A stretch of DNA of 18,900 bases, taken from the UHGV virus genome UHGV-1695514; one strand, given 5' to 3'. Of this stretch, positions 17,587 to 18,900 are shown one piece after another. Made by a program: the position numbers and the translations under genes. Numbering within the stretch: the stretch's first letter is position 1; each line of letters starts with the position of its first letter. This DNA comes from a virus. The notes under the pieces were generated by a model. That model ran no database searches, was not told the DNA's origin, and saw nothing but the letters and a program-made list of their open reading frames with translations.

Positions 17587-17617
17587 ATGATTCCATACTT
17601 GGTAGGTATGGAATCAT
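17587..17617. other. 12-bp perfect hairpin (ATGATTCCATAC / GTATGGAATCAT, 7-nt loop) flanked by an A8 run on the + strand
   Basis: Read on the minus strand the hairpin is followed by a T8 run, so it would serve as an intrinsic terminator for leftward transcription. It lies about 70 bp upstream of the predicted intron 5' end. Confidence 0.5.
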
Positions 17618-17687
17618 TAGACAAAAGAGGGTATTTTAGGTTGATCTCAATAAAAACAATGCCTAATATACTGTATATAAACACAGT

Positions 17688-18900
17688 GTGCGCCGGGAGA
17701 CCGGTAGAGATCAAGGGGTGAAAGTCCCCGACCATTGAAGGACCAGCAATCCACAAGGTCCCCGAGTCATGCGTTGCATACCGCGAGGTATGGGGCGAAG
17801 CGTTGACAGGGGTGTTGACAGGCCAGCCATTGAGCCACGAAATGTATATTAAATTACCGGGTGCCGACGTTGTACTGTTAACGGAAGGCAACATCATAGG
17901 GTGCGATACTGCGAGTGCCACATGGACCCGGCGGGGTCTGAGACCCTGGCATGTCAATACGATCTCTACGCGGGAACCGGGAGATCTCCCCTCTGACCAT
18001 CTGCCAGTGTCGGAGATGGCCCGCACCGGGAAGACGAGGAGTCATAGCCGGTGATGTACGGAGAGGAGAAGTCGGACTCGCTCATAGTAGCGGCGAAGCA
18101 GGCGAACAACCCGAAAGGAGCGGAGTCAGTGGAGCGAAGGAGCGGGGCCAAGGGGAACGCGGAACAGCCACACATGCGCCGGACACAGAGCCGGGAAAGC
18201 ATGTCACAGAGGCTGTCACGCGTGCGGGAAGCTGCGAAGCAGCGGAAGAAAGAACGGTTTACAGCATTGTTCCACCTGCTGACAGTCGAAGCACTGGAAG
18301 CCGCATTCCTCTCCCTGAGCAGGAAAGCGGCCGCCGGAGTGGATGGCATCAGGTGGATGGACTACGCCGGAAACATGAAGAACAACATAACAGATCTGCA
18401 CCGGAGGCTACATCAGGGCAGCTACAGGGCGCAGCCCGGCAGGCGTCACTACATCCCAAAAGCGGATGGAAAACAACGCCCGCTCGGCATCGCCTCGCTG
18501 GAGGACAAGATCGTCCAGTATGCGCTGGTGAAAATCCTGAACGCAGTCTATGAAAACGACTTTATGGGGTTCTCATACGGGTTCAGACCCGGGCGAAGCC
18601 AGCACGATGCACTGGACGCACTGGCCACAGGGCTGGTACGCACTAACGTAAACTGGGTACTGGATGCCGACATCAGTCAGTTCTTCGACAGGGTGAGCCA
18701 CGAATGGCTGATCAGGTTCACAGAGCATCGGATCGGCGACCGGAGGGTAATCAGGCTCATACGTAAGTGGCTCACAGCCGGGACGTCGGAGGAGGGTCAA
18801 TGGCGAGCAACGGAGGAAGGCACCCCACAGGGTGCGGTCATCTCACCGCTGCTGGCAAACATATACCTCCACTACGTCTTCGATCTGTGGGCGCATCAGT
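17688..18900 (+). mobile_element. group II intron, 5' portion (continues beyond the window end)
   Basis: Begins with the GUGCG 5' consensus (17688-17692) followed by about 360 nt of GC-rich non-coding sequence, then an intron-encoded reverse transcriptase ORF in the position of domain IV. The 5' boundary is assigned by consensus only. Confidence 0.7.
18054..18900 (+). CDS. group II intron-encoded reverse transcriptase/maturase (3' end outside the window)
   Basis: Hand translation in the frame of ATG 18054: ...[18 protein letters not shown]...[12 protein letters not shown]...[23 protein letters not shown]...[12 protein letters not shown]...[14 protein letters not shown]...[16 protein letters not shown], i.e. 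RT domains 0-4 of group II intron proteins. This frame is not in the supplied ORF track because it has no stop before the window end; the start could be a later in-frame ATG (18174 or 18201). Confidence 0.8.

Follow-up and report, generated by a model that had tools for sequence, protein, structure and literature searches.

The group II intron Kl.pn.I5 in a Klebsiella phage-plasmid: an ordinary copy within a LexA-type operator, and a target that appears to be shared across its lineage

Kl.pn.I5, which also goes by the name Se.ma.I1 (PMC6764390), is the closest described system to the element analyzed here. It is 1909–1910 nt long and encodes the intron-encoded protein (IEP) WP_004178082.1 (PMC3522654, PMC6764390), and the stretch 119263-121172 of plasmid pKPN3 is listed as Kl.pn.I5-1 in the supplement of Leclercq and Cordaux 2012 (PMC3522654). 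The homing consensus given in that paper was drawn from three copies and was not related to LexA boxes. Class C (IIC) introns, which insert after terminator stem-loops or attC sites, resemble Kl.pn.I5 in lacking an endonuclease and in being specialised on a recurrent palindromic non-coding motif, but Kl.pn.I5 has an EBS2, pairs with about 11–12 target bases and inserts inside its palindrome, the motif being a repressor operator. The IIC hallmarks, namely insertion directly after a stem-loop, no EBS2 and an IBS1 of 3–4 nt, are not those of the intron described below. RmInt1 of Sinorhizobium meliloti also has an IEP without an endonuclease domain and is replication-fork dependent; its target, ISRm2011-2, is unrelated, and we know of no link between RmInt1 and the binding site of any regulator. 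Integron integrases and tum of coliphage 186 are LexA-controlled mobility functions behind an SOS box. Whereas these carry a box of their own, Kl.pn.I5 would gain such control by entering a box of its host. Finally, an IIB1 clade found at the start and stop codons of housekeeping genes (Avi.groEL, EcKTE56.groEL; PMC12584367) is likewise tied to a functional site of a stress gene, and would share with Kl.pn.I5 expression from the promoter of the host gene. In contrast to that clade, Kl.pn.I5 targets an operator in a promoter or 5' UTR, has no large subdomain Ia and is small (1.9 kb).

The DNA studied here is an 18,900-nt viral stretch (UHGV-1695514, hereafter the window), at the end of which lies an ordinary copy of this known intron at a site other than the catalogued ones, the recombinase operator of a phage-plasmid. 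Our analysis establishes the identity and boundaries of this copy, the target rule and the covariation of EBS and IBS sequences. Its added value is the operator-homing rule, the biological meaning of which we infer. The features discussed below are as follows.

17587-17617, no strand: perfect 12-bp inverted repeat with a 7-nt spacer (arms 17587-17598 and 17606-17617)
17641-17669, plus strand: candidate recombinase promoter TTGATC-17 nt-TAATAT, adjoining the box, read by eye
17669-17687, no strand: LexA-type SOS box TACTGTATATAAACACAGT, 19 nt of the 20-nt box, closing the 5' exon
17676-17681 and 17683-17687: IBS2 and IBS1, respectively, inside the LexA box
17688-18900, plus strand: group II intron Kl.pn.I5, first 1213 of 1909 nt, assigned by sequence identity
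17721-17946, plus strand: ribozyme domain I core, Rfam RF02005 (group-II-D1D4-6), full-length model match
17843-17848, plus strand: EBS2 (UGUAUA), on the 5' strand of the internal loop before the EBS1 hairpin
17873-17878, plus strand: delta (U17873) and EBS1 (ACUGU, 17874-17878), in a hairpin loop
18051-18900, plus strand: RT/maturase ORF, N-terminal 283 of 495 codons, without endonuclease domain

An initial annotation, made from the letters alone, had proposed a genuine group II intron with its own reverse transcriptase (RT), preceded by about 360 nt of structured non-coding sequence beginning with GUGCG, and both proposals hold. The intron starts at 17688 (GTGCGCCGGGAG) with GTGCG (17688-17692), in keeping with the conserved 5' GUGYG end, and its 5' non-coding part spans 363 nt (17688-18050). 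This part contains the domain I–IV fold, RF02005 scoring 186.6 bits (E = 3e-55; gathering score 49). The RT ORF opens with GTG at 18051 (ATG at 18054) and runs unbroken for 283 codons to the window end; as the annotation had read by hand, its frame does not appear in the ORF list, for the sole reason that the list leaves out ORFs running past the end. The full-length protein of a sister plasmid (495 aa) matches the group II intron RT/maturase model TIGR04416 with 376 bits (cut-off 300), and among solved structures those of group II intron RTs are nearest. In a Pfam search RVT_1 was the sole match to the intron protein and no endonuclease domain was found.

All 1213 intron nucleotides of the window are identical (100%) to Serratia marcescens plasmid R478, and the same part matches 3,540 plasmid records at 99% identity or more, among which Klebsiella predominates. 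The ltrA product encoded within the published pKPN3 stretch is WP_004178082.1, a protein annotated also in R478 and in the sister phage-plasmid. As the IEP at the published pKPN3 coordinates is the same, the element is Kl.pn.I5, and the window thus holds a copy of an already catalogued and very common enterobacterial intron.

The 3' third of the intron lies outside the window and was inferred from a sister plasmid copy. Based on the 1909-nt full copy the 3' splice site is expected 696 nt past the window end. The annotation had expected domains V and VI and a 3' splice site downstream, and this is borne out by the sister plasmids only in part: the full copy ends in ...CGAC, with the conserved 3' AY, and its 3' end can be folded as domains V and VI, but the generic domain V-VI model of Rfam (RF00029) gave no match, even with a 171-nt slice at E ≤ 10. 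The fold comes from a consensus of the last 73 nt of nine related introns. It comprises a 33-nt domain V with an AGC triad, a two-base AC bulge and a pentaloop, the G of the triad lying opposite an A in every member, and a domain VI with a bulged A at -8 from the intron 3' end. Five pairs of this fold show compensatory double changes.

The 1.8 kb upstream of the intron match ~110-kb non-mobilizable IncFIB Klebsiella plasmids and Klebsiella phage-plasmids such as vB_KpnS_p4727 and pJN2-26. The host is an SSU5-like Klebsiella phage-plasmid, in agreement with the phage or phage-plasmid carrier named in the initial annotation. Genes for tRNA-Asn(GTT) and tRNA-Ser(TGA) were also seen on it, at 13810-13884 and 14032-14118 of the window. 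Intron-less relatives read ...TATACTGTATATAAACACAGT|ATAAAAAGCGTCATACAGTGGCCAGATTATG, where the bar marks the insertion point, and the ATG 29 nt downstream of this point starts a tyrosine recombinase ('site-specific integrase', Pfam Phage_integrase). The empty site is located between a divergent immunity-like gene and the integrase gene, and the intron, as had been noted, interrupts no ORF. Comparison with intron-less relatives, which had been suggested as the way to exact boundaries, gave a clear answer. The junction occurs at the same place in 15 plasmid records, one of which, NZ_CP132620.1, contains a full copy of 1909 nt, with 2 mismatches to the window in 1601 overlapping bases. Aligned with the empty site, its flanks are identical and exactly 1909 nt are extra, with zero target duplication. 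Since the intron is complete at the same junction in this sister plasmid, its truncation in the window is a window-edge effect and not biology. The candidate promoter at 17641-17669 matches 8 of 12 consensus positions, which is under the scan threshold, and the arrangement TTGATC-N17-box is also found at the E. coli umuDC site; judged from its sequence, this promoter could possibly drive the downstream recombinase gene.

Inspection of the insertion site points to the LexA box as the true target, which the initial annotation had overlooked. The intron sits, without duplication, between positions 19 and 20 of a 20-bp box, the 20th base (A) being the first base of the 3' exon (empty site ...ACAGT|ATAAAAAGCG). 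The CTGT-N8-ACAG core at 17671-17686 forms a palindrome in a promoter region, as expected of an SOS box, and such motifs occur twice in the 18.9 kb compared with 0.19 expected. The second one (11857-11872, CTGTGTCCCCGTACAG) has a GC-rich centre and probably arose by chance.

The first five independent sites that we compared share an identical ending of the 5' exon, the box. We then gathered copies from one genome per species, viral contigs, metagenomes and E. coli genomes. The resulting 160 copies represent 105 distinct 40-nt 5' flanks, 94 of which read CTG-N10-CAG-T|intron. The remaining flanks include two boxes in which -1 is C, several whose left half deviates at one base, one spacing variant and tandems of one intron behind another. 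Others are boxes cut by an IS: at L101 and L146 the left half of the box is replaced by a common sequence (GGAAGACCC), and a transposase gene of the ISL3 family (ISKox3) lies just upstream at L101 and also at L303, which is the tisAB site and corresponds to L101 in E. coli. In E. coli, where 215 of 5,426 complete genomes contain the intron, the chromosomal umuDC operator is occupied in two strains (...TTGATCTGCTGGCAAGAACAGACTACTGTATATAAAAACAGT|ATAACTTCAGGCAGATTATTATG), and the sbmC and tisAB operators are occupied as well. We take these three operators to be experimentally defined LexA sites. Genes adjoining other sites encode several UmuD alleles and DinI-like, Tum-like, SbmC and DinB proteins; ImuA is the neighbour in Trinickia and Burkholderia; in Ralstonia the neighbours are uvrD and an imuA-imuB-like pair. 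Sites at umuD, dinI and imuA are distributed over phages, plasmids and Burkholderiales. These flanks strongly support, as a pattern, that nearly every copy of the lineage sits in a LexA-type operator. Among the copies collected there was no head-to-head double insertion into one palindrome.

Several loci deserve mention in their own right. Between divergent dinI-like and umuD prophage genes at L046, L062 and L080 there are two adjacent LexA boxes, one of which is occupied while the second, intact box lies 7 nt into the 3' exon. In a metagenome contig (L329) whose IEP is 65% identical, a box-like sequence (ATATGTATATTTATACAGT) is joined to the intron at about nt 70, and this locus appears to be a 5'-truncated copy. 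Contigs of 0.7–12 kb from assemblies labelled Leucobacter, Brevibacterium, Arthrobacter and Prevotella (L010, L011, L014, L016) carry identical intron 5' ends and LexA-box flanks, and are likely enterobacterial DNA contamination.

The box is matched by the intron RNA. EBS1 (ACUGU), in a hairpin loop spanning 17872-17879, is complementary to ACAGT at -5 to -1 of the 5' exon; EBS2 (UGUAUA) is complementary to TATAYA at -12 to -7; and U17873 (intron U186) can face either A or G at +1. Pairing of this kind with the 5' exon had been anticipated in the initial annotation. Among 49 distinct targets of the exact Kl.pn.I5 variant, each position of ACAGT is conserved in 44–49 cases, and the EBS2 partner shows T at -12 (48/49), A or G at -11 (49/49), T at -10 (49/49) and A at -7 (45/49). 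We assigned EBS1 and EBS2 on the basis of covariation between loops and targets across relatives. Burkholderia and Trinickia introns, 73% identical at the nucleotide level over their full length (1915 nt), have UGGAUA at EBS2, as does a partly covered Paraburkholderia copy, and in the targets of these introns -9 is T or C. In Ralstonia, an intron whose EBS2 reads UGUUUAU has the targets ATAAATA and ATGGATA, and a second Ralstonia intron, with the loop UUACUGG, inserts one base further, after ACAGTA. In Ralstonia solanacearum (L319-L328), introns with a 69%-identical IEP follow ...ACAGTA with EBS1 shifted to match; these loci also include two non-box sites, one of them within a T4SS coupling-protein gene. 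Three more distant relatives (~65% IEP identity) have the loops UAGGGU, UCCGCA and UCAGAU and are inserted after ACCCTA, TGCGGA and ATCTGA, respectively, with no LexA box. The EBS1 loop is complementary to the intron's own 5' exon in six related introns. At intron position 157, within EBS2, a G-to-C variant exists, and 0 of its 7 targets have G at -8; this position may be unpaired or tolerant.

Operator homing is a derived trait of the subclade whose IEP is roughly ≥69% identical to that of Kl.pn.I5. Its members are Kl.pn.I5 itself, a 92–93% identical phage-borne variant, and the Burkholderia, Trinickia, Paraburkholderia and Ralstonia cousins, the last of which have 69–73% IEP identity.

We consider it very probable that Kl.pn.I5, guided by base pairing, retrohomed into the LexA operator that precedes the phage-plasmid's tyrosine-recombinase gene. 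In this event the intron RNA would pair with the right half and centre of the SOS box, EBS2 lying on TATAYA (-12 to -7), EBS1 on ACAGT (-5 to -1) and U186 opposite the purine at +1. As the target sequence occurs mostly within LexA boxes in the host range, the lineage in effect homes to SOS operators, and as the target is palindromic, invasion should be possible in either orientation. Given that the CTGT-N8-ACAG core is left intact in the 5' exon, LexA should still bind. A sense-oriented copy would then be transcribed from a LexA-repressed promoter and expressed upon DNA damage, and splicing out of the 5' UTR would be needed to restore the recombinase mRNA. Many sense-oriented copies lie 5–30 nt before the start codon of an SOS gene (29 nt in the window), and from this arrangement we infer that their expression may be SOS-controlled. 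By analogy with RmInt1, priming of an endonuclease-less intron probably depends on replication forks, and expression during DNA damage would plausibly be an advantage for it. Mobility is suggested indirectly by the many near-identical copies at different sites, and two new Kl.pn.I5 insertions have been reported within one outbreak (bioRxiv 10.1101/2021.03.02.433680).

Head-to-tail intron tandems of up to 4 copies, with a spacing of exactly 1909 nt and the junction ...CGAC|GTGCG, were observed at L047 (6088-11856), L077 (1103-3053), L111 and L024 (Trinickia). The bases read by the intron are almost all on the 5' exon side and +1 can be G, so that a site already occupied could be invaded again, which would account for these arrays; they may alternatively be assembly artefacts. 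In the metagenome loci L099-L178 many different 5' flanks share, across the intron, a single 3' flank (ATATTTAACAGCGTGACGATAATCC..., which precedes a ParM/StbA gene). This pattern suggests either that intron copies on different plasmids have recombined or that the assemblies are chimeric.

Orientation bears on whether the association with operators has any regulatory meaning. In Klebsiella and Serratia plasmids (R478, which is L001 at 2960-3001; pKPN3, which is L031; and many metagenome loci) the intron lies antisense to umuDC, with the LexA box on one side and the former -35 region on the other, and this is the commonest context of the intron. Such copies cannot use the umuDC SOS promoter, which makes a selected benefit of SOS control less plausible; the umuDC promoter may be lost and umuDC silenced on these plasmids. 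The association could instead be a by-product of a pairing specificity of 11–12 nt, the intron persisting as its site is multi-copy, on mobile elements and harmless. The occurrence of both orientations, the antisense position of the commonest plasmid copies and a background scan in which the right-half 14-mer falls mostly within full boxes anyway all fit such a by-product. We nevertheless hold it to be the less likely account, though one to be taken seriously, as pairing with the CAGT half-site persists in four diverged intron types despite changes in EBS2 and in the box centres, and as many sites are sense-oriented with a gene start 5–30 nt downstream. On balance we lean slightly towards an endonuclease-less intron clade of Gamma- and Betaproteobacteria that is specialised on the LexA operator, with SOS control of sense-oriented copies and the rewiring or silencing of SOS genes such as umuDC, on clinical plasmids, prophages and phage-plasmids, as consequences, a strategy that would be undescribed.

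The left half-site raises a further question, as CTG at -17 to -15 is conserved in 92–96% of targets although it lies beyond the reach of EBS2. Together with the palindromic nature of the target, this conservation could mean that the box is read as a DNA structure, much as stem-loops are by IIC introns, or that its left half is read through the intron protein or LexA. As a control we looked in viral contigs for occurrences of the right-half 14-mer ATATAAAAACAGTA that no intron occupies. CTG was present at the left position in 34 of 105 such copies overall and in 33 of 38 in contigs with a GC content ≥ 0.43. In the latter contigs most unoccupied 14-mers are already part of full boxes, and conservation of the left half may thus be largely passive. 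Since this background frequency largely accounts for the left half, and since the insertion falls inside the palindrome rather than after it and the covariation of EBS2 fits linear pairing, we regard recognition by structure or protein as improbable and retain base pairing with the right half and centre of the box as the probable main basis of targeting.

The initial annotation had also noted a perfect 12-bp hairpin about 70 bp upstream and had raised, with due caution, a relationship to introns that target terminator-like stem-loops. The hairpin is indeed present, ending 70 nt before the intron, but its proposed relationship to the insertion is not upheld. It has no T tail and was not called terminator-like by the scan, and it is found unchanged at empty sites. 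Of 105 distinct insertion sites surveyed, each with at least 120 nt of upstream flank, only three have a stem of ≥9 bp within 100 nt before the box: the window locus, a diverged phage-plasmid homologue (L090) and one Burkholderia site. At L090 the arms are kept with a different spacer and the hairpin lies 69 nt from the intron, a likeness that comes from the same locus in a diverged phage-plasmid. The survey contradicts the hairpin as a target, and the intron has an EBS2 in addition to an EBS1 of 5–6 nt, which argues that it is not of the terminator-targeting IIC type. An IIC-like intron whose insertion is tied to the hairpin is therefore highly improbable. Because it is unchanged at empty sites and stems are rare at other sites, the hairpin belongs to the phage-plasmid and has no part in targeting. 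Its arms (GATTCCATAC) have a similar half-site, TATGATTCC, at 17363-17373 of the window, and they resemble a site for protein binding or a recombinase core site, placed ahead of the tyrosine-recombinase gene.

That the RT belongs to a retron or defence system, another type of retroelement of the kind the initial annotation had named as fatal to its reading, has almost no probability left: the Drt and retron models give only weak matches below threshold (about 60 bits against 376 for TIGR04416), and an Rfam ribozyme flanking the RT and precise 1909-nt insertions contradict this identity. Two phage records, MK448228 (L005) and ON470622 (L006), annotate the intron protein as 'retron-type reverse transcriptase', which is a misannotation.

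In a literature search that covered few subscription journals, no paper turned up in which group II introns are connected with LexA boxes. Waldern et al. 2020 do not mention LexA or SOS, and the introduction of a 2025 article, written in the style of a review, gives terminators and start/stop codons as the only specialised contexts. We therefore think it fairly probable that the operator-homing rule has so far gone undescribed. For the phage-plasmid in the window the sole local consequence is that its recombinase mRNA now needs splicing. More broadly, an intron that inserts into SOS operators is present in thousands of Klebsiella and E. coli plasmids. If confirmed, operator homing would constitute a third specialised niche of bacterial introns beside terminators/attC sites and start/stop codons, would offer a simple, testable model of stress-timed retromobility, and would explain intron-linked rearrangements between plasmids. 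A further prediction would be that the error-prone polymerase genes umuDC and imuAB, like antirepressor-type genes of prophages, have altered regulation.
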